Positions 361 to 59,401 of a DNA stretch of 64,000 bases are shown here, piece by piece; the stretch's first letter is position 1; each line of letters starts with the position of its first letter. The notes under the pieces were generated by a model. The model ran no database searches. It was not told where the DNA came from and saw nothing but the letters and a program-made list of their open reading frames with translations. The stretch comes from Perna viridis (lineage: Eukaryota). The DNA lies in NCBI GenBank assembly GCA_037379345.1, contig CM074513.1, forward strand, positions 13,082,001 through 13,146,000, read 5' to 3'. The position numbers were made by a program, and so were the translations under genes.

Positions 361-2072
361 TTAGATGCCGATTAAAAGGCTTTGAGGTGTTTAATTTTGA
401 AACGTATGAAAGTTTTAAGTAGGTCAATGAGTGTCAATGCTACATCTGTTGTCAAAGACCCCGATGAATCCAAAATATTGTCTACTATACAGGACAAAGC
501 CCCAAAAGCCTTGTCTTTGTGCTGCAAAACGCACTACAACCAATGTTTATTATCGGATGTAGAAGTAGAAAATAGTAGCAGTAATAAGACCTACACTGCT
601 ACCACGCTCTCCTACGAAGAAATAGTGGAAAACCATAAATCCGTGCTGTCCTCTTTTGGTCTCTCTACTAAAGACGATGATTGTGATCTACCGTCAATGT
701 ACTGGATTTCTAAACTGCATAAGAATCCATACAAACAACGCCACATATCTGGATCTGCAAAATGTACCACTACACCTCTTTCATCACTTTTAATTTCTAT
801 ACTCACAGCTGCCAAAAAGGGTCTCCAGTTCCACCACAACACGTGTCGCCCATGTAGTGGTACTTATTCAATATGGATCCTCGAAAATTTGAAAGATCTT
901 CTGGAAATCCTCAATTCAGGATTATTATCATAATACAATAACATTAAATCTATGATTTTTCAACCCTTTATATTTCTATTCCTCATACTCAGTTAAAATC
1001 CAGACTCAAAAATGATTATACATCGTTGTTACTCCAGAAAAGACGGAACACCTAGGTACAGATACGTAGTATTTGGTAGAGATTCCTCCCGCTTCGTAAA
1101 AAACGATTCCAAATCTTCTTCTAAATATACGAAGATGTTTTCAAAATGCTGGAATTTTTATTGACTACATATTTGTCCAGTGTGGTGGACGCATTTTTTC
1201 AACAAACGGTCGGCATTCCAATGGAAATAAATTGTGTTCCTCTACTCAATGACCTTTTTCTTCACTTTCATGAGGCTGACTTTGTAGCTAATTTGATCCA
1301 AAGGAAAGGAACATCGTGTAGCCATATCCTTTGATCTCAGTTTCCGCTATATAGATGAGGTATTATCGTTAAACAATCCTAGCTTCGGAGATTTGATACA
1401 TCGCATTTAACCAAAAAAATGAGATAAAGGACACTACAGACACAGTAAAGTCGGTCATATCTTGACCCTACATTTAGAGATCGTTGGAAAAGGAAAACTA
1501 TTGACCAAACTAAATGACCAACGTTATGACTTTTCATTCTGTAGTGTTAACTTTCCTTCATCTGTGGCAACATCCCTTCAGCACTTGCGTATGGCGGTTT
1601 CATATCATAATTCAACCGTTATACCAGGGTTTGCCTAACTACACAAGCTTTTTTGTACCGCGCTAGACTTCTTACAATTAGTCTTCTTGTACAGAGTTAT
1701 GGTGCTGAAGAATTCAATCATCACTCAAAAGTTTTTGTAAGGTCGTCATCATGAATTCGTGGATCGGTATGGTGTACCCATCTGCATCATGAGAACCGAT
1801 TTGTTCAATGTCATAGTTTCGCTTTCCTCTTTCCCTGGTTTGACTTTCATGAGCAACTCGGCGGGTGTTTCTAGAAAAGCAGAGGACGCTACCCTAAAGG
1901 TGCACCTGGTCCATGCTCACAATTTTTAGTGGAGTCGAGTTGCCAATTTACTTTTGTTTCTTTGTAAGTACTATTTTGGTTATCATATTTTTTGCTGTGT
2001 GTGTATGTTTTTCCTGTCTGGTCTTAACCCCTGGATTACGTTCTTTTGATTTCCGCTAGGATCTTGGTTCCC
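361..2072 (+). mobile_element. Decayed Penelope-like retroelement (RT C-terminal, no downstream GIY-YIG; Naiad/Chlamys-type layout), 5' truncated
   Basis: RT motifs lie across several frames: YWISKLHKNPYKQR (ORF 382-933), QTVGIPMEINCVPLLNDLFL (ORF 1146-1334), FRYIDEVLSLNNP (~1342-1380), then a CGNIPSA..YG.FIS thumb. Many frameshifts and stops. The 3' UTR (1810-2072) is shared with 8 other copies in the window. Confidence 0.85.
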
Positions 2073-2553
2073 GGTATGATTAATCTTTCATTCTGGTGGC
2101 CTTATATGGACATTCATTATCTCATATATACATAAAGCGGGCGTCAGTTGACAGTCAGTCTCGGCATATGACAGATGATGATGTTGGTGATGATGATGGC
2201 GATGATGGCAACTCATTCAGTGAGGAAAGCAGGGATCGAGAAACGTTAACTTTATATGTGTTGCAATAAATAAATGGTATTAAAACAGAAGAGCTAGAAT
2301 ATTACATGCAAAGAATATCTTCATAAATAAGGGGTGTCTTTTTTTAAACAAGAGGGGTATATATATATTTTTTTTCTGTGTTCATTGGTCAGAGCACAGG
2401 GGCTTGCTCCCACTATCAAATATAGACAAACTAATAAACTAGATTCTGACTGCATATTTCATAGTGAGAGAAAGCCCCTGTGGTCAGAGGCCCTGTCGGT
2501 AAGAAATGATCTACACTCATTGTATCATATTCATATAAATATATACGAATTGC

Positions 2554-7100: not shown

Positions 7101-10100
7101 TTTAGCTGCCCGAGGAAGGGGAAGAGATAGACCAAATAGAGACAATAATATAAATAATGACAATGATGCTGGAGAATTTGGTGGAACCTTTGGACAGGAA
7201 AGAGGCTTTGATGGTCGTGGGCGTGGTAGAGGAAGAGGAGGAAGGGGTAAGGATATCAATCTTATTTAAATTTGAATATTCTATTACTCTTCACTCGATA
7301 CAAGATCTAACATTCCTCATTTATAATAAGCTTTCAAAAGATTTCCATACATTCCAGTGTTGTTAGGTGTCATGATATGTATGATTTAGAAGTGAAAGTT
7401 CTGTCCGTTTCAAACTTCATGCAAGGATGTAATCGAAGATCTTATTTTGATGGGGTAGTTTGGATATGAAATTTCAAAACATTTTTAATTTAGCAGTGTG
7501 AGAAACCATTTTTTTTCCCAACTTGCCATTCTGGCTAGTGGAATATTGATCTTGCTAGCCAAATATGAATTCAACTAGCCACATTTTTGGTTTTTTTTTC
7601 TGTACTATCATCTCTTTTCTCTTGGATTTGACTGTCTTCTGCCTTTCTTTTTCTTTCTTCAACTATCTTTTCATTTGTTTTAAATTTATCAAAAACTTTT
7701 CCACTTTCGAATATTCGCTCCCATTTAAGTTTTTCATGTTCTTTACAGTAACAAAATAAGTACTCCATTTCTGAACTCGTATTTTAATTATATTTCAACA
7801 GATTCATCATTATGAAACAAGAAAATCAATTGCTTCTTGTTCATTTTTATTTTGACAATAAACAACTAATTTGCAAGGTAAAAAATCTTAAATTACCAAG
7901 ATAATTTAGTTTGAATACTAATACGAGATCAGGACTGTCACCTAGGTTTTGGCACATCCCACTTACCGGAAATTCAAATGGCAGTTCATGAACAATGCTT
8001 TACAAGTGAATAAAATTGTGCATATCATGCCAAAATTCATTTGACATATTCAAGCTAAACTTCTGAAAATGTCGGGAACATTTTTTAATGAATGATGTTA
8101 TTAGGGATGTTTTACTAAATAGCCTGTTGGCTGGTTCATTTTCCTTGGAACTTGCCAATCAAATGACAGTCACCTAATTGACGAGTGTAAGCAAATGAGA
8201 ACTCGCCAAAATACACATCTACTCGTATTTGGCGAGCTGGCGAGCAGTGGTTCCTCACACTGTATAGTCAAATATTTGACAGTCAGTAGGGCAAGTGTCT
8301 TTCTTGTGTTAGTGTATAGCTAATTTGTGTGGCTTACCATGCTAAAAGAATTATGAAAAATTCCAATTCAAATATATTTAAAGTTAAAAAGCAAAAAAAA
8401 AATATCTGTTCATCTCTTTGTTTTGCAGAAATGTGGTTTATGCAAATTGATTTTATTTAATGAGTGTAGTGTATCCTTTGTATATTCATAGATTGGGTAA
8501 CAATTTGAGGTCATCCCTTGATTCCTATTATACAAAAACACAAAATGAAATAACTTAGTTTTGGATTGTTATTGCATTTTCTTATTGAAAACATGACCTG
8601 CTTTGCTTATAATTATTGATGATCTCATTTTTTTGTTACATTCAAACACTGCTATAACGTGTCTAAAACAAATCTCAGTCACAAAATTTTTATAATTATG
8701 TAATGTGCTGTGTCAGTATTGTATATTGTGGTAATACCTTTTATTCATAGGAGGATCAAGGCGTGGAAGAGGAAGGTAAGTTGTTACTTAAGTATTGCCA
8801 CATTTAACAGTTTATAAATTTTTACTGCTTCATCTCATCTAGTGTGCCGTGTTTATTGTCCATAATTTATCACAGAATATAGGCTGTTTCCTATAGAAAA
8901 TTTAAACAAAATCTAATTTTCCATAAATTACAGTAAACTCAGGACTTATTAGAGGTGCATTTTTAAATTTTTTCTTGAATTTAAGGCATTCAAATAGTTC
9001 CTTGTACTGTTCAGACAAGGAAGTTTTGATTGTCAGATTTTTAATTTGTAAGTTAATGGTGACATTGGAATACAATGAAGATCTGGCAGCAGGATTATAT
9101 CAGAAATTGTTACACTTATATTTGTTGTGATTCTGATAGGTGAAACCTTGAAATGGTTAATTTGATTCCATGACTGTAACTTACTCATGGTATTAATAAG
9201 ATATAAATTTGCTGAGATAAAAGAGATAAGGACAAAGAAAATATGCATACAAATTTGAATGTGGTTGTCTTGAGGAATTTATCTGTTTAACTTAAAAGGA
9301 ATTATTTAAAGTTTGATCTGTATGAATAAAGTAATGCCATGTAAGTAAACTGCTGTCCGTTACAAATGGTATTATGAAGTTTAAGAAAAAGAGAATGTTT
9401 TACTAGCAAGCATTGTACATGTAAATGTTTCCTTTTGGCAACCCAAATTTTGTTGCATCTGAGATGGTCTGTTGTTTGTTCAGGAGTTTCAATTCACAAT
9501 CCAGCAGAGATCGACAGCCACAAAAGTTTGAAAAGGGACCACAGATTGATACATGGACCAATGAAACAGCAGAAAATGCGGAGAAGGAGAACAATACAGG
9601 TTTATATGATTTGTATATATAAAGCAGAAAATTCTCTGAAGGAGGTAGACCTAGGGTAAGGGACATAACTCTTGAAATCAGTGATATGTTTTTATCATAT
9701 TCAATTTCACCAAACCTCTCAAGCTTTTGTTTGAAGCAGAATAAAATCAATCCAAGTTAATTAGATGCTTACATAAGATGCATATAAAATGCTGTATACA
9801 AACGTTTCAATGATTTTTAAGAGTTGTGTCCACTACCCTAGGTCTACTTCCTTAATCAGTGTACATTTTGTATGCATTTAATTTTTATTTTATTCTTGTT
9901 TAAAAAGGATCAAGATGCTGAAATAGAAAAATTTAAAAAGGATGGCTTCTAGACCTGTGGACAAGTAGAATTAAGCTTACTTGTGTACTCGAATTCACCT
10001 CAGCCTGTTTTAAATTTGTTTAAATTATCTTTTAAATTACTCATAAGTTCCTTTACAAAAAATGCCATTTTATTCATGTCGTTCTGTACTACAACTCTCA

Positions 10101-13100
10101 TACAATTATTTCTTGTTCTTACCTCCGAGATCAAAATATTTCCATATTTATTTTTTTCTATGAGAATTTTGAATGTACTGTTTATCCGCCATCTTGTTTC
10201 TATGGATATTTTTAGATGTTCCCTATTATCTCACAATTGAAGAGCTGAAATACCATGATTTCCCGCCATATTTCTGCTCTTAACCTTTAGTGGAAGAAAA
10301 AACCTTAAGTTTCGAATGAAAATGTTACAACTGGTACCCAATATGAGACTTACTACATGTAGTATTGAATTGGCCGGGAACCAGAAATATGACGGGAAAT
10401 CATGGTATTTCAGCTCTTCAATTGTGAGATAGTAGAGAACATCTCGAAATATCCATAAAAACAAGATAGCAGATAAGCAATGCGTTCAGTGCAAACTTCT
10501 CATAGAAAAAATAAATATGGAAATATTTTGATCTCGGAGGTAAGAACGAGAAATAACTGTATGAGAGTTGTAGTACAGAATGACATAAATAAAATGGCAA
10601 GTTTCTTATGGGATGGGAACTTTTGAGTAATAAAAAAATTAATCTAAAAAAACTGCAAACAGGCTGAGGTGAATTCGAGTATAGTGGTAGAGGCAAGATT
10701 TGATTCCTGGCCAAGTCAAATTAAAGATTTGGTTAGCATGTTCAATATCATATGAAAAAGTGGCAGTCTTGCACAAATTTTAGTACACTTAATTGATGAA
10801 ATGGTCTACTTAAGAAAGCATGGAATATCAGCTGAAAAATGTTCACCCTACAAGAAATCATATTCAACTAGGAATTTGAACAATTTAAAAAATTTGTGGG
10901 GAAAACATGTAAAAAGTACTTCCCATTGGTGTTGAAAAATTCACAAATACTTTTATATTAAAATATTTAAAGAAATGATGCAGTCAACAGGTTTTTTTTT
11001 TCTTTGCTATGTATGGTATTCATCACCCAAAATATGAAAGCATGCTCATTTTTCTTTTTTGTTTTGTAGGTCCATGGGGAGATGGTATAGAAGATTGGAA
11101 TGATGACACATGGCAAGGAAATGTAAGTATTCACCCGCTTTGCAGCATTTGTTACTATTGAAAGGATGTGCTTAATTAGCTTTTGAGACTGCAAAGACCT
11201 ACATCTCTAAGTTTGTTCATTTGTTGGTTGTATGTTAAAGAGCTCTCTGTGAATTCATAAATCTTGATTAGTAAATACTACCTATCAGTTAACTGTTAAT
11301 TTTGCACTCTGCTGTAATGCTTAATGATGATAGTTATGTTGGATGGAATACTTTTTTTTAAGAATTATTGGAATGTGCACTCACATCATGGACAGGTCTG
11401 ATTTGAGTAAGATTAATGGGAACACTCCTTGCAGTAAGGTGGAATATTCATGTGTTATTTCAGATTTTCTTAACTATGTGCTGTAAATTCAGAAATTTTG
11501 TGTGCATTTATTTTTTGCGATTCAAGTCAAAAGGTTAAAATGTGTAGTTTTTTATTTTTGTGAATCACCACTTGAAAGGTAAAAATCTGGAAAACATCTA
11601 ATCAAGTCAGTCCCTTATTGCCATACATTTTCTTCACCTTTAAGGGGGATCAATCTGTATTAAATGTATTAGTGATAAAATTTAATTTCAGTTGATAGAA
11701 GTCTACAAAATAAGGAAGACAATATCACATACTGTCTGTGTAGATGAGTTGCATGATTGGGTGTGTTGGAAGGTCAATCATACTACTTATAATAATATAA
11801 AATCCATATATAAAGTTGTTGTTGGTTTCATGCTTTCTAGTTTTTGATGAACGCAAGCTTATTTGGAACGTTATATCTCAAGTTTAAAATCATTGGCTTG
11901 CTGAATATTGTCTAGTTGAAAGAAATTGCTTAAGGTGCTTTTGAAAGACACTTAAGAAACAAAGTACACAAAATTACTTTAATTGAAGAATATTGTTAGA
12001 GAAACTGACTGTATATCCTGATTGACAAGTTTGATTGCTGGCCATTGCATTTTTCATATTAATAAAAAAAACAATACATTAATTTCTTAATTCATTGTAT
12101 ATTCTGTTAGAAGGCACCTATCAAAATGATTTTTTTAATATATTTTTTCTTGAAATCCACTTGTGATAAACTCCATTTCTAAGTGATTCACATTTCAACC
12201 TTTTGCTTTGGAAAAAAAAGGGATTTTTGCACTTACTTGTATATAATGTATAAAGGCGGACTTGAAAAACATTTACTCACTGAAATATTTGTCAAATGAT
12301 AAAGTAGTAGCAGTTGGAAATTTCATGTTCTTTCTGTAGTATTTGCTGACACTTAAAACGTGTGCATGTACTAAATCTTTGGAATGGTCCCTGTATGCAT
12401 TTATCTCCTAAAATTCTTTAAAAGTCACAAATTTTACTGGAAAACTTTGACATTTTGACGTAAACTATCTGCTCGGGAGGCAAGATACTTTAAACTTGTA
12501 ATGATCTTATTTCCATATGCTATTTAAATGTTAATTTGTAAATGTCATTTTGTGAAAAGTTTAATACTCAATATTTTTGTCATATTCACAATTTCAGAAT
12601 CAGAAGTCTAAGGTAGGACAAATACTGCACTTCATATATGTCTGGTGTCAGAAATGGGATACAGGTCTACTGTAGAATATTTAGAATAATTTATTGTCAA
12701 TTTTTTTCTACTGAATCAGCATTCCTTAAAAAAAGAGTTCTTGCCTCCCACCATTATAGGAATTTTATCTTTTGAAATGAGGTTATGATGTTCTGAATTT
12801 AGGGGCTGTTCCATTGAAAAGTTTTTAACTTACTTGAGGATGTAGGCTGAATAAGTTTCTTTGTTCAGGTAGCTGGCATTTTATCCAAAAAAAAAACATT
12901 GAAGAACATCTGTTGGCGGTAACCTTTTTTCACAGTCTCTTCTAAAATACGGAGTCCTAGGATGAAAAAAATGCTTGTTTGTGAAAATCTGCTACAATTA
13001 TATTTGCATGTTAAAAGGTTTCGATGAGCAATGCATGATTTTATGTTGTGTCAATTATTAATTCTACATGTACTTAAATGCAACCATTACAGATAACTTT

Positions 13101-19100: not shown

Positions 19101-22100
19101 TGGACTATCAAGTTCACGTGGGCTTTCATCTTCAGATCTGAGTGCTACAAATAGACTTACTAATTCTGCTGGATTACCAAACAAGTCTGATTATTCACAA
19201 TTGCCTGCTTCCTCTCAGAGCTCCTTCCAATCTCAGTACCAGTCAGGAGGAAACCAGTTTCAATCTAGTCAGAACCAGTTCCAAACTGGGCAGAACCAAT
19301 TTCAAACTGGTCAAAATCAGTTTCACAGTGGACAGTCCCAATATTATGGGCAATCAGGCACATCATTCCAAAGGGAATCAAGTTCCTTCTCAGGAAATCA
19401 AGGCCAATCAAGCTCATTCTCTGGGAGTCAAAATCAGGGAGGCAGTTTCCAAAATAACCAGAATGGCCCAAGTTCCTATCAGGGTGGTCAAACGCAATCA
19501 AGCTCCTACCCAACGACAAACTCATTTTCCTCAAGTAAGGGGAGTTCATTCCCAGGAAGTCAGAGCACTGGACAAAATCCTCCAGGAGCTTACCCAGGAA
19601 ATCAAAGTTCAGCTGGAAGTTTTAATCTGACTGGTAATCAAAATCAAGGAGGTTCATTCAGTGACATGAAAGGTCAAACTGGCTCATATAGTGACCCTTC
19701 AAACCAGAGTGGATCATACAAAAGCCAGAGTAGTTCATTTAGTGACCCATCTGGTCAATCTGGATCTTATAGTGATAGGCAAAGCCAGAGTGGTTCATAT
19801 TCAGATAGACAAAATCAATCTAGTTCATATGGTGATAGATCGAACCAATCATCAGGCTCGTATGGTGATCGCCAAGGTCAGTCTGGTGGCTCTTTTGGTT
19901 CAGATAGATCAAGCCAGTCAGGTTCTTATCCTGGAGGTAGTTCATTTAGTGGAGTTTCACAAGCTTCTCAAAATTATAATAGTGCTAACCAAAGTGGACA
20001 GAACTCACTGTATCAGGCTGCTGTGTCAAATGCCTACCAAGGACAAAGTCAGCCTGGATCTATATACCATCAAGGTGGTTCTTCCCAAACCACTTCATAT
20101 ACGCCACAAGTTTCTACTAGTTATGGAAGAGACTCACAGTCAGGAACATTTTCCACAAATGTTTCACAGTCAAGTAACAGCTATCAGCGGGATGGTAGCT
20201 CTGCAGTGACTCAATCTTCATTTTCATCCAATACCTTTGGAACAAGCAGTCACCAGGGCAGTTTACAGTCAAATCTGCAGTCAGCTGGACTTTCTGCAAA
20301 CAAACTCGGTGAAACTTTGTCTAAAATGAGTGTAAAGGACTCAACCATGGATACCAGACAATCTCCTTCACAGGTAAGTTATACAATAAGCAAAATTTCT
20401 CTTGACAAATGGTGATCAGTTAAATGAAAATTAACATCTTCCTATTTCTGTAATTGAGGACGACAGATACCTGATGCACTATACTCGATGTCACATACAA
20501 CACATTTTCGAATTGAAGCTCTACTTTTGAAACCGTCGGGACTTACTGCTAGAGTTGTCTCTCTTTTATTTAATCTGAAGATAGTTCACATATATGCATG
20601 ACGTGTTAGTACCAACGAGTCGCTTATTAGCTTAAATCATGCGTAACAAATCCTTACGGGAAAATCCCATACTAATATCTGCCATGTTGGTTTCAACGGG
20701 ACGATTTGTTTACAAATGAAGTTTGTAAGTTCCCGTCAAACTCCGGTGACAATCGTCTGCTTGATCAACTTCTCGGTATTGTACGTTGTTCGCGTAAAAT
20801 AAATCTGAGATATTTGAAATAATGCCGAAATGCATTCTGGGTTCTTCGGTTTTTGGACAAACCATTTAAACATAAACAACATCTCTTAGCAACCTGATCA
20901 CTGTAAACATGGCCGACTTTTTACAATGTAAATATTGGCACAGAGAATTAAAATCTTACCGAAATTTAACAATTCAATGTTTAGGGAGAAGCCGTTTGGC
21001 TAAACGAATGAGCAAGTTTTTAAGACAATTTAAACGACAGTAGGTGTCAATGAAGTCGTACAAAATATTTTTATTCAAATTTTAACAGTATCTTATTTAT
21101 GTAATGCTGAGTATAAAGGAAATGTGTTCTGTCTTCGACTTGATAATTTTAACACATAGGCAGCGTCTGTTGTATAATATGAAGAAACTAGTCCTATTGG
21201 GATCAAAATAAATCATTGCAACTCCATTCATTGTTTTACCATGGGCTGGCCATTTGTCGCATTGTTTCTCCCAGAGCAATGGAGATGGGGTTAAATAACG
21301 ACATAAATAGCAAGCCCATGGTAAAACAATGATAAAATGGAGTTTCTGTAAATTATTTCCTAATTACAGTGATTTGATGTTGGGGTAGAAACAGTGCTAC
21401 ACTTATAATATTTAACTCAAGTCTAATTTCATGTTGAACTCTTGAAAAGCCTGCTACTACTAGCATTGTGACCATATACATTTTTATATGTGAAATTCTT
21501 TCTTACAAAGAGTATCGTAAGTCTTAGATATTAAAAAGATTTTAAAGGTTTTAAGCAAGATACATGTAGAAAAGATTGTTTTCTTGATACACTCAGCTAA
21601 GTTTACAATGATATTGTTTGCCTTGAAGTTTCCTCTGATGAACATTGTTCCAATCTCTTTAAAAAGATTAAAAATGTATCCCTTAGAAGATAAATTATTT
21701 CCCAGTTGTTGGTCAAAGTACTGGATATGGTGTATATATCCAAAATTACTATGATAAACTGTTTATGACTGTATATTTTTGTTGTTACTTTATAATATTA
21801 ATTAATTTTAGTGGAAAATTATAGATTTAAAAAAAAAATAATATACACATGTAGTTAACTTTTTTTATTTCTGATTCCCTCATTTATAAAAAAAAAAAAG
21901 GAAAACATTGTCACTTCTTGTACCCAATAAGTTCTGTGAAATTATTCTAATTGATAAGTTTATAATAATAGTTAATCATGATGTGAAATCATGTTTTTGT
22001 AGTTTGATAATTCTTCATCTGCGACAACTGCTAATTTGACATCTACAACAACTTCTGCTTCTTCTGTGTCCACTCCATCCGCAACAGCATCGGCTACGAC

Positions 22101-25100
22101 GACAACAGTTCACTCAACAGCAGCCAAAGTTTCAACAGCTAGCAGCAGTAAGTATACAGACATTATTTGACAGTATGTTACAATGAAAGCTGACAAATCA
22201 CATACTTTATTTATTGGCATATATAAATCAGAAGCTAAATTTTAACTCTCTTAATTAAATAATGCAAGAAATTTAAAATTTACACTAGTATTACATTGAT
22301 TCTTCTTCAATTGCCATGACTGAGATTTTCAGTCACTAAGACTATGTTCTAATTTGAATTCAAAAGAAATGATGTTTACATATGTAAAAGTACGTATTTT
22401 TTTAATGCCTGCCTCATTTTCAACTTTCTGCTATTTCAGCGAGTAAAGCTCCACCAAACTTGCCACCTGGAGTGCCATTACTAAGTCATCAGTACATCAT
22501 GGGTCAAAATTTAGGACCTTATTTTGTAAGTATAGCTTTATTTTTTTAAACAGGGTATTTGTATGTTTTTAGGGTATTTCAACATGTTAAATCATTTCAT
22601 TTTGCAAATTGGTCATGATTTATTATTCAACGACATGATAAAAGTGCACAATTGGAAGAGAGTAAATACATTTCCTAACAGTAAAATACATGTTTTGCAG
22701 AAGGTTTAAAAACTGAAAATTACAAGCAAGAGTAAATCCATGGACAAAATATGTTAGGTCCGTAGACATATAGCATATTGTATAACACTAGAGTACACGC
22801 AGGAAAGCAAACAGCACTTACTCCACTAAGAACTGAGATTAACTCTGATGATCTGGAAGGTCGAGCATTTTAAATTTGCTTCCTGCAAAACAATGATTTG
22901 TACAATTTTTACAAACCGAGTATATTTCTGGGGGTCGTAGATTTCTTTTTAGAAAAGAATATTTTAGTCAATACAAAATTGCTTACTGGTGCAAATGAAC
23001 TTGTTCTCCCACAAGTTTACTTAAGCAACAAACTGATGATGGTATTTAAATGTTATCCTTCTGCTATCATTCTATCTACAACACATTTTGGATGCTTCTC
23101 TTCTAAAACCATCTGACAGATTGTCTTTTTATTGGATACGATGTATTGTTATAAAGTGCAAACTACACATTCAGGCATTATCAACAAATTTTGTTGAGTT
23201 CGTGATAATGGGACTCCGAAACTACTAAGTCTCTTCAGTGGATGAAGACATATGGAAGCATGTAGCAATTTTCTATACATGGACATATAAAACAGAATGA
23301 TAAAACAGATAATACTGTACAACAGTTTTAAGTTCAAAAATACAGTACAGCTTTTAGTAGAAACTTCCACCACTTTCCTTTCAGGGTCTTCAACAGCCAT
23401 TGTATGGGTATGAAGATTTACAACTGCTTCAACAGAGGTTGCCACCAATGGTATGTATAAAATTGTTCACATTTTTATGCTTCCACTTTGAAAAGTGTCT
23501 TGTACTAGGATATGAAGATATTTTAGATGTATTAAGCATTTTTATGCTTCCTCAGTTAAAATAGGGATATATTGTTTTACCCCTGTCTGTGTTGCAAGTT
23601 TTCAGTTGATATTGCAAAACGCACCATCTGTGGCAATATCTCTTCAGCACCTGTGCTTGGAGTTTTCATATCACATTCATATGTTATTCATGTGTCCAGA
23701 GCTTGCTGTAACTAGGCAGACTTTTTGTACTGTGCTACACTTCTTACAATTAGGTTTTTTTTTAACAGAATTATGTTGCTAAAAAGTCATCACAACTGAA
23801 GTTTTATGGTTGTCGACATGAACTCGTCAACTGTAATGTATCCATCTGCACCATGAGAACCGATTTGATCACTATGTCGTAGTTTTTCTTTTCTCTTTGT
23901 TTACCCTGGAAGTGACATTTTATGGACGAGGCAGGTATTTCTAGAAAGGCAGAGGATGCTTACCCTACCAATGCACCTGACACATGTATGCTACTAGTTT
24001 ATAGTGCAGTTTGGGTTGCTCATTTCCTTCTGTTTCTTTGTACATGTTATTTTGGTTATTTCATGTTCTTTGTTGTGTGTCTGTTTTCCTTGTCTAGTTT
24101 TTATCCTCAGATATCTTTGAATATAGTTCTTTTTTATTTTCAATGGAATGTTAGTTCTCTTGATTACTCTTTTACAGAGGGTCTGACTTTATTTGTTTCA
24201 TTATTGAGGACTTGTATTTATCTAACAAAATAGCTGATTTCACTCACTTGGTTCGTACATGTGCATTCAAATGGCCTGTGTAGGTTTTATTGATGATTGG
24301 CTTCAAAGGTACTTTTTAGCTGAACTGGCCAAAGCTCTTCTCCTCTGAAACTACTTGACTAATTAGAACCAAACTTGGTATGAATGTTCCTTGGTGTATC
24401 CTGCATAGAACTGATGTGGGGATTTTTGATTCGTCAAAAAACATGGCCGCCATTACTAAAAATAGAACATAGGGGTCAGACAGTAGTTTTTCACAGGTAT
24501 CTCCAAAACCGTAAGGTTTATCCATATTCTGTCAATAGCTGAAATGATCCATATTATTAGGACTACAAAAATCTTCAGATTCCTTGTAAGAGTTATTGCG
24601 CTTGAAAGGGGAAAAATTTTTTTTTTTTAATAGTTTTCAGTCAATATCTTTAAAACTATGATAGATTAAAAGAATCTTGTGATAGTCATACCAAAGACTT
24701 CTTGAGTCAAAATTGTTGGACAACTTGTTTAATTTATTGCCTTTGAAAGGCAAAATTCAACAAGGTGAGCAATTCAGGCTCCTGGGAGCCTCTTGTTCAT
24801 TAGCCCTTTAAGTTTCTTATGTTGTTTTTAGATCTGTAAAGATGAGTTTAAAAGATATAGGGCCAGAAAAACTGTATGAATTCATTTTAAGTAACTTATG
24901 TCAATTAAGATTAAATGATCTTTTTTTGCAGAACTTACAGAATTATAACTATGATATGACAGCATTTAGCAATGTACCAACAACACTGAATACAAGCAGA
25001 GAACCAAATCCATTGGCTGGTAATATCCCATATTCAGGTACTATAATAGGTACCATGAAATTATTATTATAAAAACTAGTTGTTTAATATAATGATATAT

Positions 25101-28100
25101 GTTGCCTCATGTTTGTCTGACTCCTCTTTGGTAAAAAGTCAACATGTTAAAATAAAAATCAAATTTGAATGCCAGATTAAAAAAAAAACGTGTACTGATA
25201 CTATTTTATTTCATTATATTGTATTTTAATATGGCACAAGATCGGTTTTGTGGTCATTTCTTGAGGTATATTTCATGGAGATGTATTAAACTTTAACACA
25301 AGGTTTCTTACCACTTAAAGCTTACTGCTTGGGGTCAAGAATAAGCATTTTTTTTCTATATAAAACTGAGTGAAAGTTGCTTATTTCTTAACCAATTTCA
25401 AAGGGGTTGAATTTAAAGTCTTCAGTATTCATCTGGTTAGACTTTGTATTTTGTTCTCAGTAAGTTCTTATCAGGGGCTAAAGGGTCAATATTTGAACAT
25501 TATTTGTTTTCATTGAAAAATAATTTTGAGGGTTTGAATGCTGAATCAATCCATGTTCCATATAACATTAATTTTCACCAAATTTTGTGATATGCTGTAT
25601 GAGTAGGGGTATTAAATTTTTACAGTCTTTTATTTTAATTTTCATGAGGTTTTATTTTTTTGATTCTTTGGACCTTATGAATTACAGCGAAAATTTCCTG
25701 CTATACGGTATTGAAGTTTTCTATTTCTATCTAGGAATTCTATGATTGATTGTTGGGATTTAATGCAGCCTGAGCAGCAATATTTCAGGGAAATCTATGT
25801 GTAGGATTATTTTTGCTGATATTTTGTGACCACAACTATAGCAAACATTTTCAAGTGTATAGCATGTACATTAAGAAGCCAATAAACCATTGCATCACTT
25901 AGCCTGAAAACTTATATCTACCTCATCTATTATATATTTCAGGATCAGACAATAAATTAAACAGAGTGGAAGCACAGTCACCTATTCCTACTACACAACA
26001 GCAATCAACACAGTCTCACCAACAACATCAGTTTATTAACTTGCCATATGGTTATTGTTATCCAGGGACGGTCTTACCAGGAGCACCTACACCAATGGGA
26101 TTCCAGTATCCCCCACAAATGATTCCAGTAAGTACAGCTGGAATGGTTCTGTAAATCTGACTCTTTCACCTACATGGGGTTGTCAGTTTTTGACAGAATA
26201 CATTGCAAAAAATGCATTTCAAAAAGAAACTAAGAACATTTTACATTACTTTTAATTTGTTTTGTATTTTTGGTGAAACACATGGCTACATATTTAGCAG
26301 TAGAAGATGTAAGGCTTGTAAGTCTTGCCCTATGACGCTACGATTTCAAGATAATAGGTCCCAAATTCCCATTCAAATGCATCAAATGTGGTTATTGAAA
26401 GAGCAAGACTACAATCATTATCAATGTCAGACCTGGTGAAATCATTTTTCAACCTGATCCGACAACCTAACAGAATCTGCTGGACCAAACAATTGTCTGC
26501 CGGACAGAAAAAAAACAAGAATTTTGAATTGCTTTTATACTCAATTTGGACGCCATCTTTAAACCGGAAGTTCAGGTTGAGGCATGCCTAATAAAAAAAA
26601 TGTACCAGGCATCTGGTCTGGAAATCATACAAATTTTACCCGACTGGCGGCTAAAAGTACCTGTCATGTCCGACAAATTTCGCCATGACTGCAGTGTAAA
26701 AGTGATGTGTATGCAATGGTAAAAATGTGATTCTTAATTTTTTCTTCACTGCAATAAGTTAATAATATCACAATATAGGAAACTGATAACTATGCATCAA
26801 ATTGATATACCCAGAAGTAAAGTAAATACAGATCAACCTTCAGTATTAAATGCTTTCAACAGTAAATATACAGATAAGAAATAAATGGAGAGTACAACTT
26901 GTGCGTTCTATTTTTTAAAATAACCACTAAATTGAAAATATTTTATGCAGAATATTCCTTCTCGCCAAGAAATGACCTTTTGTGTCTCCTGACTTTTAAC
27001 TCTGTTATATTGATTATAGAAAAGACATATGATATATGCAGTTTAGTTCCTACCCGATATCAACATCCTGAGCAGAACTTAGATTTTTTTTTGCTCCCAT
27101 AAATGTTAGTGAGAGTTTTTGTTTGAAAAACCCTTTGATTTAAGTGATTTGAAATTTGGTTTGCAGCTTCACTTTTGTGATTTGTTCATGAAACAAAGAG
27201 TGTTTACCGTTTAATCAAGCAATTCTTTGATAGAGATTTTATACTTTGACTAAAGGTAAATCTAGCATTTCATGTCTTGTATTATGTTATTATAGGTTCC
27301 CCCCGTAACGAATACCGCTGCTCCACATGCTGCTGGTACAACAGGAAATGCTCAGTTCCAAAAACAGACATATGGATCTCACTCTTATGGAAGTGGCAAA
27401 GGTTATTATTCTGAAAGTTCATGTATTAGTGTTAATTTCTGGTATGCTGGAAGTAAAAATAGTATCAATCAGTTGTACACACTGTAAGCTAAATTTAAGT
27501 AGAAATCTGTAAAAAATTTACTAGAAGGTAAAATGTAGAAAAAATGAGTTCAATCAAAAATATATCAACATTTTTAGCTCACCTAGCCAAAGGCCATGTG
27601 AGTTATTGCTGTCACTTGGCGTCTGTCTTTGTTGTTCATCGTCGTTAGCAGTTTTTCAAAGCTCATCTCTTCTGGCACTACTTGACTAATTGAAACTAAA
27701 CTTAGTATGAATGTTCCTTGAGGTATCCTGCATAGAACTAATGTGGGGAAATTTGATCCATCAAAAAACATGGCTGCCATTCCTAAAATACTTAAAATAG
27801 AACATAGGGGTCAGACAGTTTGTATATGTCTCAAAAACTGTTAGGTTTAGCCAAATTCTGATATGGGAGAAAAGTTGGGTGTTAGGTTTATCCAAATTCT
27901 TTCAACTGCTGAAATAATCCTTATTTAAAGTCCTACAAGTGTCTCCAACGGATCAAAGTTGTCAGACGACTCCTTGTAAGAGTTATTGCCCTTGAAAGGT
28001 GAAAAATCGGGGTCTATTTAACAGTTTTTTAACGAGCAACTCGGCGGGTATTTCTAGAAAAGCAGAGGACGCTTACCCTACTGGTGCACCTGGTCCATGC

Positions 28101-31100
28101 TCCCAGTTTTTAGTGGAGTCCGAGTTGCTCATTTACTTTTGTTACTTTGTATGATTTTAGTTACTTTATGTTCTTTATTGTGTATGTCTGTTTTCTATGT
28201 CTGGTCTTTGTCCCTGGATTACATTCTTTTGATTACCGCTATAACCTTGGTTCCCTTGATTACTCCTTGATATCTATGATAGATGAAATAAAACTTTCTG
28301 TTGCTGAAATGATCCTTATGATAAGACCTACAAAAGTTTGCTGGGATCAAACGTCTGCCATTACTGAAATACTAAAAATAGAACATAGGGGTCAGACAGT
28401 TTGTATATATCTCAGAAACTGTTAGGTTGAGCCAAATTCTGATATGGAAGAAAAGTAGTGTGTTAGGTTTATCCAGATTCTTTCAATTGCTGAAATAGTC
28501 CTTTTTTCAAGTCCTACAAGTATTTTCAAGGGATCAAAGTTGTCAGACGACTCCTTGTAAGAATTATTGCCCTTGAAAGGCAAAAAATTATGTTTTTAGT
28601 AGTTTTCAGCCAATATCTTGAATACAATAATAGATAGGATGAAACTTTCAATTGATGAATGATACTTATGATAAGATCTACCAAAGTCTTCCTTGAGTCA
28701 AAATTGTATGACAACTCCTTGTTTGAGTTATTGCCCTTGAAAGGCAAAAATTTAACCAGATGAGCAATTTATTCTCCTTTGGGCCTCTTGTTTATAGTCT
28801 GACCTGAGTAAGAATATTTGTTTACCTTGAAAATAGGACATATTTTAAGAGCATAAATAAACTCAAAATAAGATATATTTTGAAAAAGTCAAGTCACGGA
28901 ATAGATAAAGGAGCTGAATCATTAAATATTCAAGTGTGTTATGATATAATGTACTATAAATAAATCCTACTTTGAAAATGGGCATCTACATTAAACTCTC
29001 AGGATAGCAATGTGATTACTGTAAAGTTATTTATTTTAATGGTGTGCTAATTTTTTGCTATATTCTAACAGCATATAGCACTAATAATTATTTTTTTAAA
29101 CAATGATACTGCGAACATGTTCATTTGACAGAATCCGTGAATATTAGCAACCAAGAAAATTAATGTATTTACAGTAATAATTGTAATAGAGTCAATCCAG
29201 TTAGATATCCAATCTAAAGGGAACAGGCATATATGACGTGTTTTTGTCCCCAGTACTATATTTTCCTACTTTGTTGAAAATACAACAAAAATTTTCCAAG
29301 AATAAAGGGTTGGGCTGCTTTGAAAGCAAGGAACAAAATCACTGTATACCAGTAAAATTTATGAAATGAACATTGTTGGTTAGTATTTGAAAGTGTTTTT
29401 GCACAGTTTGTTAATCTACATGTAGATTCATTCAATAGGGTCTTATTTAGAGACAAACAGGTGCATTACACTTCAGATGTTTCATTTTACAGGATATGAT
29501 GATATAACCCAGCAGGTGAATGACTTTACCAAATCCACGTATCTGAATCAGTCACAGAACAAAGTGTCAGCAGTTTCAGGTTTGTTAAATGGTTAGCATC
29601 ATGTAGTATGTATATGTTACTTAACCCTTAGTTTTAGCACTTCATCTTCTCTATTGGGTGATTGCAGTAAAAGTCTCAATGATTAAATAGATGTCATCAA
29701 ACAAATTTTCTGCAGATGATCAGAATTTTTTCCTGGAATAACCCTAAGAGGTATTGTGTTATATATGTGGTTAAATATCTGAGTTTATTACACATTCATA
29801 AATTCTAATGGGAGCATTTAATGGAAAATTTTTGTTCACTGTCTGCATATCTGTACAATTGAACTTGAAATACGTTACCACATTTTTTTTAAGGTTATTA
29901 TCGTTTTTTTATACCAAAGGTTTTCACTTAAATGCTATAGTCATGGCATACAAGACAAGCAATAGAGAAACTATTTTTTTCTATAGCTCCGTACTTACAC
30001 AATTTTAACTGATGTTAATTGAAATTTTCCAAGGCAGTTCCTTTTTTGTTAGGTTAAAGTAAGATATGATAATGTATGTTGAATTAGTGCTTTAGTTAAT
30101 CAAAAATTCATCATAAACAAATGTTTGTAGGTTCAGCCACCCCTGTTACGGCTGACTTGTCTGGCACAGGACTGAGTGGTGTGACTGGATATGGTAAAAC
30201 ACATACACAGGTAGGATATTAATCAGAAATTAATCAGAATTCGAATGTTATTTTTATTTAAAAAAAAAAAAAAAATGGATTGTCACCATAGAACATGTAT
30301 GCAATTAAACAGTACAAGTTACAAAACATGTAAACATAAAATTATAATCAACTGCATGCCTCCATCCAATTGAATCTAATAATTAGGTTTAATCAGGCCT
30401 TTCATTAAGAGGCAGTACCAGGTACTTTTACCCTTATAAACTACTGAAAGGTATTCCAGAATTTTAAAATTTCATATATTTTTATTAAACAAAATGATGA
30501 AAAGTACCTCCTACAAAACCAAAGGTACCTGCATTGCAAAATAAATAATGAAACCCCTGTTTGTTACATAGCACCAAAATAGGAGCACCTCTCGGATTGA
30601 ATAAATGGTCAACTCTCTCGGATGTTGAGTCAACTGAGGAAGTTGAGTTATTAATTACAATGACAAAAATATTTTCTTTTGATTAATAACATTGATTGTC
30701 AAAATTTCACATCTGTTACTGTACATCACACTGATGCAATTTTACAATAATATATGAAATATCAAATTCCTCCCATGTGAATATATATTGAAATTGAAAG
30801 TTTATCATAATTAATGAAAAAGGTTCAGCATTCTTGTATAAAGTTTAAAGCTCTTTAATTACACATACCTTTTGTTACTTTAATCAACCAGCAACTTCAC
30901 ATTTACTTGTTCAATGTATTTGCTGTTTAAGAAACTATTTCCAAAATATTGATATAATTGACTGCATAGTTCATTTGTTAATATGACGTCCTTAACACGC
31001 TTTGAGACCACAGCTGTGGTTGATTTTCGATTGCCATATGAGCAGCACACGACTTATTTGGCATGGCTTGTGTGTGTGTGTAAATTACTGTCCACTTTAA

Positions 31101-43600: not shown

Positions 43601-44999
43601 ACCAAGGTTTAGAATACAAAGTATGCTTGAGACCGGTGTTTCAAAGGACGAAAACGTATAAAGAAGAATATGGTTATAGTAAGGAAAAAATGAATCTTGC
43701 CCTTGTATTGACGACGAACTCGTTATCCATTCGCGTATTTGTATCGTTCGAGAAAAATATATACTCAAACTGGTACCATTCGTGGGAGGATGCATGTGGT
43801 GATCCAGGAATTGAATATGCTATACAGTCAAAGAAATTATGAAACATATCATGCCCTCCATAAATCTAAAGATATACAAAAGAACCCCTTTCTTTGAATA
43901 TTATAGGGAATGAAATCAGGAAGTTTGTAATGCAACCCGGTTACCACAGACAACTTACCACATAGATAAAAACAAACAACTTACAAAGAAAACAAACAAA
44001 CAAATCTACATAGAGTTGCAATAAAATCCTCAACTATAAAATTCTTTACAAGTAATATAATGAAGGACGTACACTGACACATACAGTTACAATAGAAGCT
44101 AATGTTACAACAAAAATCTTTGTAATGTTTTAGTCAATAAAAAAGAATGGGAAAACAAAAAAATTGTGTATATTTTCAAATGAGTATAACAAAATGCACG
44201 CATAACTGTACATATAAGTATTTTACCTTGATTGACAATCTCTTCCATTGCTTTCACGGCACTGGACTACCATGTCGTTTGGCTGATGTCCAAATTGCCG
44301 AATTTCAGACAAAGATGGATTAACAGCATCCCTCCATATTTCAAATCCATATGTCTTACTAGCTCCATACAGACTCTCCCAATCGTCGGACTTCGTCATA
44401 CCAGCATATGGAAGAAAATCGTGGTTAAGGTCGGACACGAAGTCATCAATACCACCACCTAAAGCTCGTTGTAGTATCGGCCAAATTTCTTTAGTTTCCA
44501 ATAATAATTTAGCAGATGAATATTGTTGAGGATTGAATGACCCAAAGTCTATATTGGCAAGTTTTGACAGTCTGGATGATTGCAACAATTTCGACCTTTT
44601 GAAAACATTTAGATTGCATATAGAAATGTACGTAGAAGGAATTCTTTTATTAGAAAGTGTTGAAGATTTGAGCTGTAAATAGTTATCCTGATTAATGTAA
44701 CCGTTGATTGACAAATACAACATAAAAACTAAACCCCCAGCTGAAACCAAAGCGATCAAGAACCACACCGCGCACTCTAGACTGTTTCTAGTCGAACCGG
44801 CGAAGTGCAAGCCATGAATGTCAAGAGCCCGTAACCAGTATTGCATTTTTGCTCTTTTTGAGTTGTTTGATTTTGCACCAAGTGATTTCCATTCGTTCGA
44901 TTGCATTTTTTGGTCTTTCTGTCTTTGCTTATCACTGTCTGTTAGCGAAGTAAAATATCGTTCACATCTATCCTTCCAGTTACTTCCTTCCTCGTCCAT
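34606..44999 (-). CDS. Divergent DEG/ENaC/ASIC-family (amiloride-sensitive-type) ion channel subunit, 9 exons, ~689 aa
   Basis: Exons (minus): 44999-44227, 39723-39659, 38642-38479, 38156-38106, 37483-37381, 37106-37034, 36369-36183, 35896-35772, 35134-34606. All GT-AG and phase-consistent, total 2070 nt. Motifs: pre-TM1 DIHGL, TM1, ISICNLN, GHQPNDMVVQC, GNCATLN, LILNVEPQE, a 10-Cys thumb (DC..CERSC..CQC..C..C..CDCKPKC), WPS, TM2 LLSQIGGLSALFVGMSIISVFQL. Confidence 0.92.
37930..38081. mobile_element. Degenerate GC-rich MITE in channel intron
   Basis: Termini CAGCGGTGGAACC / GGACCCACCTTTG form an imperfect inverted repeat. Confidence 0.45.
38810..38906 (+). mobile_element. Copy 5 of the Penelope-like element (extreme 3' end)
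   Basis: Ends ATCTTGGTTCCCTTGATTACTCT. Confidence 0.8.
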
Positions 45000-46658
45000 T
45001 TTGATACAAACTCTTGATGGGGTTTCTCTATTGTTGTGCTAGGCAGCTGTTCAGGTTTCAAAAGGCTTAGTCGTAGTTGTTCATATACGCATAACTTTCA
45101 AAATGTCTGCTGTTTTTTTTTTATCTATTTGGTAGACAATTTTATATTCTACGCCCGTCTGAATCCGTAAATTAATACAAGATGTCTGATGAAGCCATGG
45201 CCAAATATTTGCCTCTTACAATCGTTAATTCATGAATAAGAGTATGCACCTGAAATTCCGAAACTACGCATACACAGTTTCGGAAGAAATATTGTTAATA
45301 GATCCAAGATTTCTACGAAGTATACATACTAAGTACCCAAAAAACCGCTTTTCGTTTGGGCTATTTAATGGTTTTAAATCCAGCGGTGAACTCCGTCTAC
45401 TAAAATTAACACCCAAGTGTTTTAAAATAGTTGACTTCTTCTGCTAAATACACTTAATCCATATGTTCCGTCTGCATATAAGATTTAGAAGTTAAAAAGC
45501 TAAATTGCAATCCCCGTTACTTCACAGCTAATTGTCACCGTAGAACTATTGTATAGCAAATAACAAATCTCATTTATATTCCACGGTTAGTTGACTCCGA
45601 TTGATTTAAAAATATATATATAAATTCAATAAATCTAATGATGTAACAGTCATTACTAAAAAGATAACTATATATCGCCTGAAGTTTCAAAGACAAGTAC
45701 CCTTAAGACTTTTAAAGCGATTATCACACTGATTAAACCACATTTCCAAAATTAATATAGATCATTTGGAATTTTAGGTATTTTAAAACATCTTTAAATC
45801 AATACTATTTCCAAGGATGTTGTATTCAATAATGGAATCTACAATTCAGTTATATTCTTGCATTTGAATAGTAGCGGGTATTTTATTCGACTTCACACAT
45901 ATCGTCGGTAAACGCCAACAACGAATTCGAATTAGTACATGCTTAAAAATACAATGACATTTTTATTGTGACATTATCTCCCATGAAACAATAGTATTGG
46001 TTTCAAGGTGTAGATTTCAATAAAGAATAATCTTAAAATCTCGTGTCATGTTACATGATCTTTTGACAATGAGTCGCTCATTCATGATACATGATAAAAG
46101 TCACCACGTCATTTAAACAACAGAAATTATGAAATATAAAATTACACTTTTTAATTGTGAAACAATGATTCCATATCGTGTAAAATATTTTAAGCCTGGG
46201 ATAGGCTATCTAAAAACGTCCTTACGTGGCAAAGCATAATCAGCATTTTCAATTCTTTAAACAATCCTGATAAAACGAAATTGATATTTAAATGCACTTA
46301 CACTACAAACTTCCTTCTTGAAATTTATGATTTGATTTTCTTTTAAGTGTAATACTTCAATTGTTGTTCCATTGTTTTATTTTTGTCGATAAAAAACTAT
46401 TAAGTATCAAAAATCAAGTAAAAAACGAGCAAGTTAAAACATCAGGTTTGGATTAACATGTTAATAAAACAAACCAATGAATCATAACCGACTTCCGATG
46501 AACAAACAAATTGCAATCATGTAAATAACATGTTAAATGCACCAAATAGAAACCTGGCTAATCTGAAACCTTTAGTCTAACTTATAAAAATCCTTGGAAT
46601 CATGTTTGATCTGACAATTTTTCGCACTTACAAATTAACATTTGCATTGCTGTTTTCA

Positions 46659-56771: not shown

Positions 56772-56933
56772 CTTGCCAACTTTAGAAAATCAACATGGGG
56801 TTTTTAAGTGATACACTGTGTGAATGAACAATTTCCCACCATATTTTGCAAACTGTGGGGTTTTTCTCAGTTGAACAAGTGTTTATGAAATATGGACAAG
56901 TGACTTATTCCCCTTTGATAATTTCTTCTTGAA

Positions 56934-57142
56934 AGAGTAATCAAGGGAACCAAGGTTATAGCGGTAATCAAAAGAATGTAATCCAGGGACAAAGACCAGA
57001 CATGGTGAACAGACATACACAACAAAGAACATAAACTAAAATAATACATACAAAGTAACAAAAGCAAATGAGCAACTCCAACTCTACTAAAAACTGGGAG
57101 CATGGACCAGGTGCACCGGTAGGGTAAGCGTCCTCTGCTTCT
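56934..57142 (-). mobile_element. Copy 7 of the Penelope-like element (3' UTR); a short copy 8 lies on + at 57292-57356
   Basis: Reverse complement of 28060-28265. Confidence 0.88.
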
Positions 57143-58539
57143 CTATAATGTATTTCATATAATTTGAAGTACTAACACCATTAAAAAGAAATGAATGCCA
57201 TTTCTGCATTTCTGATAATATTTTGAATTAGATTTCATGGAAAGACTTGTGTGTAATTTCCACAATGATTCACCTACTGTCTGATTCTTCCACCTGGTCC
57301 ATGCTCTAAGTTTTTAGTGGAGTCATTTAGTGCTCGTTTACTTTTGTTGCTTTGTATATATCCTGCACAACTCTTTGGGACTCCTGCATTAGTGTAGACC
57401 AACTTGGTCAAATGGTTCTGAATGAAGATATGTTCTAAATTAAATAACCCATACTTGTACCGTACCAAGTTTTCCTGTACCCAATTTACAGCTTTTTTAT
57501 TATAACAAGATATTTCCAGATGGAAAGTATGTACAATTTATCCAATCACATGATGGCTAGCATTCAATGGTTTTTAAAATGTTTTTCAAATTTGATTTAA
57601 AAAGTTCGGCAAATGAGACATGAATATGAACGTACTTACAAAAGAAGTGACACACATCTATTGATAGGCCATCTCTAGCTATATATACTTCGTCCAATTA
57701 GGGAGAAACCATTTGTGTAATGGAGGTGGGGGGAGACTAGGATAAAATTTGAAATAAAGTAAGGACACACCAATCCAGGGAAAAAAATAGTCAGGACAGC
57801 ACAGGCCCTGAAAAAAAAATGCACGATGCAAATTTTGGCTGGAAAATTTATGGTTAATTTTGAGAGAAAAAAAGGTGCAGGCAAACACTTGAAAAAGATA
57901 TCCAGGATCTAACTTTATTTGAAATAATTTGTGTTTTGGGGGGGGGGGGGTGATAACTTTTTTATGTAGAAAATGAAATAAAGGGAAACCATTTTTTTAT
58001 GAAGAAAATTACAAAAAGTGAACGTCAGATTTTTGTTTGTATAATGTCTGGCCAAAGAGCTGGTACTTGGTAAAGGAGTTTAGTACAAATCATGATGGTA
58101 AAACATAAATGTTTGATGAAATTGATGAAGAAAAACAGAGAAATGAACATGAGGATGATATTGATGCAAAGGTGTCAAGTCTTCCACTTTTGGAGGGAAC
58201 CTCCCAATATTTCATTAAAATTTTAACAACCTCATGCTTACATGTGCATGTCAAAGTGGGAGATGAATCCACATTTGTGAAAAATTCTCCCCTTTCAACT
58301 TAGATTTGTGATCTTGTCAAAACATGTTATGAAAACGAAAACTCAGTAAATCACATTTATGATGATGAAAAAGAAGAAAAAACTTGTGTGACAAGATGTT
58401 CAGGGACTGGGAGGAAAGCAGGACCATCATTGGCATCAAGAAAAGTAGACTTAATATGTGTTGCAATAAGTAAATGGTATTTGAACAAGAAGTTTCAGCT
58501 TTAGAGGGGTGTACAAATTGTTTTCTATGTTCATTGGTC

Positions 58540-58878: not shown

Positions 58879-59401
58879 CTTCGGCACCTGCATATGGAGT
58901 ATTCATATCACAACTTATACGTTATGCCAGAGCTTGCCAATACGCAGACTTTTTGTATCGTGCTAGAACTCTGACAAATAGGCTTCTGGAACAGGGTTAT
59001 GTTACTACAAGATTGAAGTCATCACTACAGAAGTTTTATGGTCGTCATCGTGAACTCGTGGATCGTTATGGTGTATCCGTCTGCACCATGAAAACTGATT
59101 TATACGACGGGTCAAAGTTTTCCTTTCCTCGTTTGTCTACCCCGGACTTGACTTTTTATAAGCAACTCGGTGGGCGTTTCTAGAAAAGCAGAGGACGCTT
59201 ACCCTACCGGTGCACCTGGTCCATGCTCCCAGTTTTTAATGGAGTCCGAGTTACTCATTTGCTTTTGTTACTTTGTGTGTATGATTTTAGATGCTTTATG
59301 TTCTTTGTTGTGTATGTCTGTTTTCCATGTCTGGTCTTTGTCCCTGGATTGCATTCTTTTGATTACCGCTATAACCTTGGTTCCCTTGATTACTCTTCGG
59401 C
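58879..59401 (+). mobile_element. Copy 9 of the Penelope-like element, best-preserved RT C-terminus plus 3' UTR
   Basis: ORF SAPAYGVFISQLIRYARAC..DFLYRARTLTNRLLEQGY..RLKSSLQKFYGRHRELVDRY. Direct repeat CTTCGGC at both junctions. Confidence 0.9.

Follow-up and report, generated by a model that had tools for sequence, protein, structure and literature searches.

What do the catalytic RNAs of Penelope-like elements have in common with the conserved module described here? According to the accessible parts of the relevant papers, these elements carry minimal type-I hammerhead ribozymes, which sit in the pseudo-long terminal repeat (pLTR), have a palindromic helix III and are thought to act as dimers (Cervera & de la Pena 2014, PMC4209133; PMC6765202). 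Naiads, the Penelope-like elements considered here, are reported to be without canonical hammerheads, and the available portion of their description gives as diagnostic traits an N-terminal GIY-YIG, CxC and DKA motifs, a C-terminal reverse transcriptase (RT) and a partial tandem (Craig et al. 2021, PMC8557442). In a window of 64,000 nt, the whole stretch of DNA that was analysed (Perna viridis, GCA_037379345.1, CM074513.1:13,082,001-13,146,000, forward strand), about nine pieces of a Naiad repeat are found, whose 3' untranslated region (3' UTR) and pLTR hold a module of about 100 nt. Like the type-I hammerheads, it lies in the pLTR and 3' UTR, has a palindromic element that would drive tandem copies into dimers and surrounds its core with varying helices; it differs from them in its length, its pseudoknot, the presence of two palindromes instead of one and the lack of a CUGANGA/GAAA core. 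By analogy, the module likely works like these dimeric hammerheads.

The host element has the diagnostic Naiad traits. In a longer copy (L032), a 524-nt pLTR with the module stands directly before a body in which a GIY-YIG frame lies upstream, and thus N-terminal, of the RT frame, with CxC, DKA and the C-terminal part of the RT, so that the pLTR forms a partial tandem. The frames are broken by frameshifts; the translations of L032 and L033 contain DCSCK (CxC) and PADKA (DKA), and the Pfam matches of L032 (PF01541, E 0.0013; PF00078, E 0.0067) are both under the curated cut-offs. The RT stop codon lies about 45 nt upstream of the module, and a transcript starting in the pLTR upstream of the module, a start which we infer, would carry two modules. 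In the 723-Mb genome, the terminal 35-mer of the family is found 9,138 times as an exact match, and its reversed control 0 times; copies of this module-bearing Naiad family number at least 9,138, and a genome search with a distant RT found the same family again at 27 of 30 loci.

Structure and covariation of the module

Beyond Perna, the core of the module is present in 12 of 54 published Naiad consensuses in the available part of the PMC8557442 supplement, spread across phyla from cnidarians to bivalves and hemichordates; five of them are named by their headers (two Clytia, two Saccoglossus, one Ptychodera), while the order within the file is the sole basis for placing the other seven (five bivalves, a second Ptychodera and probably a fish). 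The search pattern built from these consensuses fixes four short core words and leaves the segments between them free, and is blind to palindromes. In metagenomes it matched at least 120 loci, with 37 clusters among the matches listed, most of the named entries coming from one assembly, and a narrower pattern found 403 sites in the Perna genome against 0 in the control. A Naiad RT is encoded within 450 nt upstream, on the same strand, at 34 of the 120 listed loci, with identities down to 32-36%.

The module is best described in copy 4 (28027..28265, plus strand, as are all module features below), a 5'-truncated Naiad that consists of the 3' UTR only and ends at the family's fixed 3' terminus, 28265. 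Its closing stem P1 is formed by the strands 28034..28044 and 28120..28130, with 11 bp here and 13 bp in intact copies; P1 is family-specific and adjoins a conserved C in most families. This stem, an inner CTCC (28100-03)/GGAG (28115-18) pairing, the word CACCTG (28087-92) and the 135 nt to the terminus were all placed correctly in the initial annotation. The distance it called fixed is constant within the window family, whereas the tails of published consensuses are, by eye, both shorter and longer, and a hairpin it drew as AGG-ACGCTTAC-CCT did not hold, being paired in 58% of alignment cells over 24 families without any two-sided change. Palindrome 1 (28051-60), palindrome 2 (28079-86) and the helix P2 (28066-70/28093-97) had been missed, and the two palindromes are the main clue to the mechanism.

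Following the 5' strand of P1 is the conserved C-GGGUG (28045..28050), whose leading C lies outside the search pattern, yet is present in 102 of the 120 listed metagenome loci. Its last base is G in 72 of 77 copies of the family and A by mutation in copy 4; a CGGGUA subfamily was considered and rejected (3 of 77 copies), and the variant hence does not help to choose between two possible pairings of the core. The CGGGUG strand can pair with the conserved CACCUG (28087..28092) over 6 bp, which is favoured by one published consensus with CACCCG and one with GCTTACTA, or, through its GGGUG, with YACYC over 5 bp, which is favoured by C/U changes opposite G; either may be its partner. Next come the loop-less palindrome 1 (28051..28060, 10 nt) and an (A/G)GCAG linker (28061..28065), the conserved CAG of which is fixed by the search pattern. 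The first three bases of the linker can pair with GCU at 28071-73 (outer pair A-U in 17 families and G-U in 7, middle pair mismatched in 4 of 24). The variable 5-mer 28066..28070, the 5' strand of P2, pairs with 28093..28097 and crosses the GGGUG helix as a pseudoknot. Between the P2 strands lie the conserved GCUYACYC core (28071..28078), fixed by the pattern and present in the published consensuses, and palindrome 2 (28079..28086, 6-8 nt, with one C-to-T change in copy 4). Most of the 24 families have a predicted peripheral hairpin arm (28100..28118), whose length and sequence vary from family to family.

The case for an RNA structure rests on covariation, as single-sequence folding is only modest (copy 4: z -2.64 on the plus and -5.26 on the minus strand; other copies: -1.7 to +1.2). 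Across 37 cluster medoids, which were drawn from the matches listed and include decayed copies and one chance match, the first free segment contains palindromes of 7.1 nt on average against 3.4 nt when shuffled (maximum of 2,000 shuffles, 4.3), and the second 4.2 nt against 2.7 nt (maximum 3.6). For P2, 4.19 of 5 pairs form in the 37 clusters among the matches listed, against 2.78 with swapped partners, and the signal falls on register shift; for P1, the true partner strand ranks first among 23 in 13 of 23 families, with a mean of -14.1 against -8.5 kcal/mol. An alignment of 24 family representatives has 95% of its cells paired and 117 two-sided changes, neither of which is reached by any of 500 shuffles, but both of which are inflated by relatedness and fitting, as the tool itself warns; slid controls pair in 37-47% of cells, and the number of pairs with two-sided change is not exceptional (75 of 500 shuffles). 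All 5 pairs of palindrome 1, which is paired in 99% of cells, and all 5 pairs of P2 change on both sides. Among the 120 listed loci, 15 different perfect palindromes occur at palindrome 1 and 9 different perfect 6-mers at palindrome 2. Compensatory changes across families are thus found in P1, P2 and both palindromes, which bears out the original proposal of an undescribed conserved cis-acting RNA in Naiad-type 3' UTRs, and the structure is almost certainly real in the sense-strand RNA.

Viral contigs contained neither a pattern match nor a relative of the RT. Prokaryotic genomes gave 14 matches, of which 13 are without the long palindrome and P2, while the fourteenth, a 407-bp contig deposited with a bacterial assembly (L191), resembles an animal Naiad 3' UTR consensus by eye and is probably contamination; these matches thus give no evidence that the module occurs in bacteria.

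Probable pairing of two module copies

At the centre of palindrome 1, the two neighbouring bases are complements of each other in 22 of 22 alignment cells (AU, CG, UA, GC and once GU), 9 of which have both sides changed, and in 106 of 118 unselected loci among the matches listed. As one strand cannot pair adjacent bases with each other, the fact that their complementarity is kept makes it likely that the RNA dimerises. Predicted energies point the same way: 0 to -4.3 kcal/mol for palindrome 1 as a hairpin and -8.4 to -25.3 kcal/mol as a self-duplex. We thus consider it probable, on the strength of the sequence patterns, that two copies of the module pair via their palindromes, each palindrome forming a predicted inter-copy duplex. 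With two of them, a chain could leave its own core, work in that of its partner and then return, in a domain swap.

In retroviruses, a variable self-complementary stretch, a single 6-nt loop on a hairpin, pairs two genomic RNAs at dimerisation initiation. The module is alike in its variable self-complementarity and differs in having two loop-less palindromes inside a pseudoknotted core.

Alternatively, the palindromes could be tiny hairpins in a monomeric RNA element serving 3'-end protection, termination, export or translation control, or the conservation could reflect a promoter signal read in the DNA of the pLTR. Close to the 3' end, the module is indeed followed by a U/G-rich tract, and promoters are present in pLTRs according to the available part of PMC8557442. 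A hairpin, however, needs no complementary bases in its loop, yet these are kept, and its predicted energy is near zero; a protein reading DNA is difficult to reconcile with at least 15 different palindrome sequences. Further against a DNA signal, the few mismatches in the palindromes of the published consensuses, as far as the supplement is available, are by eye G-U on the sense strand, although this bias is weak in our own set (7 G-U, 4 A-C). In either form, we find this explanation quite improbable.

Known catalytic folds and possible self-cleavage

Self-cleaving RNAs are typically small folds in which helices of freely changing sequence surround a conserved core, a picture that the module fits. 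Judged by sequence features and models, the fold fails to qualify as hammerhead, twister, hepatitis delta virus (HDV)-like, pistol, hatchet, hairpin or selenocysteine insertion sequence (SECIS) element. In 23 of 24 families, neither strand contains the hammerhead word CUGANGA; the lone match (L085) is not shared, and there is no Rfam hit. Neither the UGA/GA quartet of SECIS elements nor their apical AA appears in the aligned core, again with no Rfam hit, so the absence of hammerhead and SECIS cores noted in the initial annotation is upheld, and no identity to a known Rfam motif emerged. A twister L4-like word occurs in 1 of 24 families, is not shared and comes with no Rfam hit. An HDV-like fold also has no Rfam hit, and the roughly 22 nt between the P2 strands are too few for the P3-L3-P1'-J4/2 of its nested double pseudoknot. 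Pistol, hatchet and hairpin gave no match beyond chance at E up to 5-10 across 4,227 Rfam families, in which a model for each of the three was not confirmed. The Naiad paper deals with the same host element and, in its available part, reports SECIS elements in four families and no such module, though its consensuses contain it (PMC8557442). Full-text searching, judged by title and start of the abstract and with subscription papers and bioRxiv supplements outside its scope, returned no description of the fold.

A second Naiad fold resembles the module in design. Five consensuses, the 3' ends of Naiad_Mgal, Naiad_Bpla, Naiad_Mphi, Naiad_Scon and Naiad_Mmer (Mytilus galloprovincialis, Gigantidas, Modiolus, Sinonovacula and Mercenaria), carry at the same place a twister-like fold with two palindromes, as seen by eye against the accessible description of twister type P5 (RF02684; PMC5408937), and our module is not visible in the last 520 nt of these five consensuses as available. 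The two folds have in common their position, a closing stem and two successive palindromes, the first of them 10 nt long; the module is without the L4 loop, the GAGG/YAA internal loop and the T1/T2 partners, and its core sequence is unrelated. In the Perna genome, the twister-like pattern has 186 sites against 13 in the control. They are old and decayed: the loop word is retained in 10 of 34 examined, although the first palindrome is still enriched (4.6 against 3.0 nt). Three of them follow RT remains that have the same orientation. At L336-L369 (for instance L353 near 1500 and L364 near 1326), twister type-P5 features are seen with the first helix replaced by two palindromes. A conventional-looking twister is also present (L370:1500-1565; G000:C3:2746868-2746916), with a best Twister-P5 match of 22.1 bits, below the cut-off. 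In parts 10-13 of the PMC8557442 supplement, as far as available, coral and nematode Naiad 3' regions show by eye hammerhead-like words, CTGATGA or CTGACGA with GAAAC.

Twister-sister deserves separate mention, since GCUYA and GCAG of the module resemble the two strands of its catalytic internal loop, a 5+6-nt loop between two stems that is cut at C-A. In the accessible part of the structural description, the cleaved strand G7 C8 U9 C10 A11 A12 faces G36 C37 U38 A39 G40, with C8-G40 and U9-A39 pairs (PMC11620745). The module holds GCU(U/C)AC and GCAG and could in principle be a rearranged twister-sister whose internal loop forms across two copies and is cut at Y-A. Both strands are alike in sequence, but the stems are not in place within one copy: the flanking helices are arranged otherwise, a pseudoknot and palindromes are present, the opposite strand lacks one base, the 5-mer that links the two strands has its pairing partner elsewhere, 6 of 24 families have A-C where the flanking helix would open, and no Rfam hit was obtained. 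A variant of this kind strikes us as improbable.

The initial annotation had listed RT recruitment, processing and catalysis as alternatives without choosing among them. By analogy with the known ribozymes, self-cleavage of some kind, by an undescribed fold or a twister-sister variant, is somewhat favoured, and to the narrower reading, our preferred one, in which the paired form is a dimer-dependent self-cleaving ribozyme of undescribed fold, we would give an even chance. For such a ribozyme, transcription of a partial tandem like that of L032 would yield an RNA with a module close to either end. Palindrome 1 would carry each chain over to its partner, where it would build P2 and place its GCUYACYC strand, and palindrome 2 would bring it back; cutting would take place only in the two-copy form. 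GCUYACYC is the candidate active-site strand, and a cut at its U-A step (28074/28075) would be our guess. The cuts would free a unit-length RNA that could circularise and then be copied beginning at an internal position, in line with proposals for Penelope elements that carry hammerheads. More tentatively, the module may stand for a new ribozyme class, an obligate domain-swapped dimer built on two palindromic helices, which in cnidarian, mollusc and hemichordate Naiads is swapped with twister and hammerhead at one slot.

Truncation points were examined in an otherwise unselected sample, the 100 copies with an exact terminal 35-mer that come first on contig C1. Within the module their 5' ends have a density of 2.9 per kb, as against 3.0 per kb over the preceding 100 nt, and the fullest 15-nt interval is ordinary (P 0.77). 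Between 220 and 250 nt from the terminus there are 9 ends where 5.3 are expected (P 0.08, uncorrected), a slight excess on the 5' side of the module that is not significant. The suggestion that the start of copy 4 reflects stalled reverse transcription, or the first base of a processed RNA, is not sustained, as the ends do not pile up at the stem, and stalling there was rejected.

The module has also been found behind another protein. In two near-identical loci (L043:941-1296 and L155), it lies in the apparent 3' UTR of a long interspersed nuclear element (LINE) unrelated to Naiads, about 265 nt past the stop codon in L043. This is an internally deleted copy that retains the last 12 residues before the stop; a relative of 99% identity (P0001) has, by eye, a C2H2 finger, an RT and a restriction-like nuclease motif. 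A module behind a LINE fits a cassette that is independent of the protein.

The strong rival to a ribozyme is a non-catalytic dimer scaffold, in which the palindromes pair two modules and the core binds the Naiad protein, so that two RNA 3' regions, or both ends of one RNA, are held in place for priming on both target DNA strands. It draws on the same palindrome evidence, on the inverted or rearranged pieces that adjoin several copies and on the 5' ends, which are without a cut-site signal; moreover, in the available text of PMC11167929, both strands are cut and extended by a Penelope protein for which a dimeric state is predicted. Yet the module also stands behind the LINE protein, related Naiads have the twister-featured fold at the same site, although a protein-binding site would not readily swap in this way, and the RNA needed for insertion of the Penelope element PAc is located at the start of the open reading frame (ORF) (PMC11167929, accessible part). 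On balance, we regard such a scaffold as rather unlikely.

Several observations weigh against the dimeric ribozyme itself. PAc is the one Penelope element reconstituted in vitro, and according to the part of the study available, its hammerhead mutants inserted normally and none of the reads had an end at the cleavage site (PMC11167929); likewise, the 5' ends of our 100 copies mark no cut site. Known ribozyme families remain unmatched, with chance hits only in the Rfam scan of the region, the window and 20 related loci, and the twister reading of the second fold consists of sequence features seen by eye, to which Rfam gave no score. By energy, the minus strand folds better. The 24 aligned sequences were hand-picked in favour of intact copies, and the invariance of their core is circular, as the core bases were fixed by the search pattern. 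Only 34 of the 120 listed loci, many of them short, show the upstream Naiad RT, and the LINE case, being one family with two near-identical loci, could be an inserted Naiad fragment.

The window, the family and implications

In the window, a covariance model whose training set includes the window's own family matches five copies, at 28043, 59169, 1860, 23930 and 57103-57139 on the minus strand (E 2e-14 to 5e-8), and all five copies recognised in the initial annotation are thereby recovered. Two of them do not hold a closed module: the one noted at 57070, in a copy on the minus strand (56932..57148), is cut inside palindrome 1, and the one at 23925, in an old copy on the plus strand (23625..24170), is decayed and has lost its 5' stem strand. 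On the plus strand are also a longer, decayed copy (376..2090) with RT remains including the DKA motif and the module at 1851, and a copy (58879..59397) with the C-terminus of the RT and the module at about 59160. Copy 4 is placed inside another repeat (27657-28007 and 28302-28795), a 234-nt block of which is duplicated on either side. Fold-back repeats resembling miniature inverted-repeat transposable elements (MITE-like) and a palindromic minisatellite are found at 9986-10681, 21206-21358, 58540-58669 and 59722-60377. Of the neighbouring genes, 6898-27400 (plus strand) holds exons of a long S/Q/G-rich gene, which we take to be UBAP2-like, with the last recognised exon just before copy 4. On the minus strand, there are a presumed ENaC/degenerin-like exon (44223-45038), a presumed glucose-6-phosphatase-like exon (48702-49250) and broken pol pieces (60537-63952), presumably from an LTR retrotransposon, with what we take to be RT, RNase H and integrase-like parts.

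Elsewhere in the genome, an older second family (L301, L373-L394) has the same module with other palindromes and another P2. Inverted or displaced element pieces directly adjoin the 5' or 3' ends of L210, L212, L222, L270 and others, and internal deletions with ends in the module are seen in L219, L226, L243 and L300. A second conserved non-coding motif, CTGCTGGTGG ... GTCCCCGAG, opens the body of bivalve and hemichordate Naiad families at its 5' side and could be a protein-binding or initiation site; it occurs on the minus strand of L032 just past the pLTR, about 150 nt past the module in L112, and at the 5' ends of several consensuses in the available PMC8557442 supplement. Two further units (L095, 796 nt, ending in a TATC run; L100, 987 nt) combine the module with a terminal direct repeat, have no Pfam hit and resemble retrozymes, which favours the ribozyme reading, but their repeats touch the contig ends and assembly may have shaped both. 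Together with L069, L142, L149 and L152, likewise module-bearing and without a recognisable ORF, they are possible non-autonomous, retrozyme-like passengers of Naiads.

What would the module mean for Penelope-like elements? The absence of hammerheads from Naiads has been taken, in the available part of PMC8557442, to suggest that ribozymes may be passengers. That this slot holds a conserved fold with two palindromes, alongside a twister-like one of like design, suggests instead that there is selection for the pairing of two copies, and brings an open question on how these elements move within reach of tests on an RNA of 100 nt. If the module is indeed an obligate dimeric ribozyme, Penelope-like elements would need a cut that is made only when two copies meet, whatever the chemistry. 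Should it have no catalytic role, it would still offer structural study a compact target, a dimer of natural RNA in which two palindromes covary.

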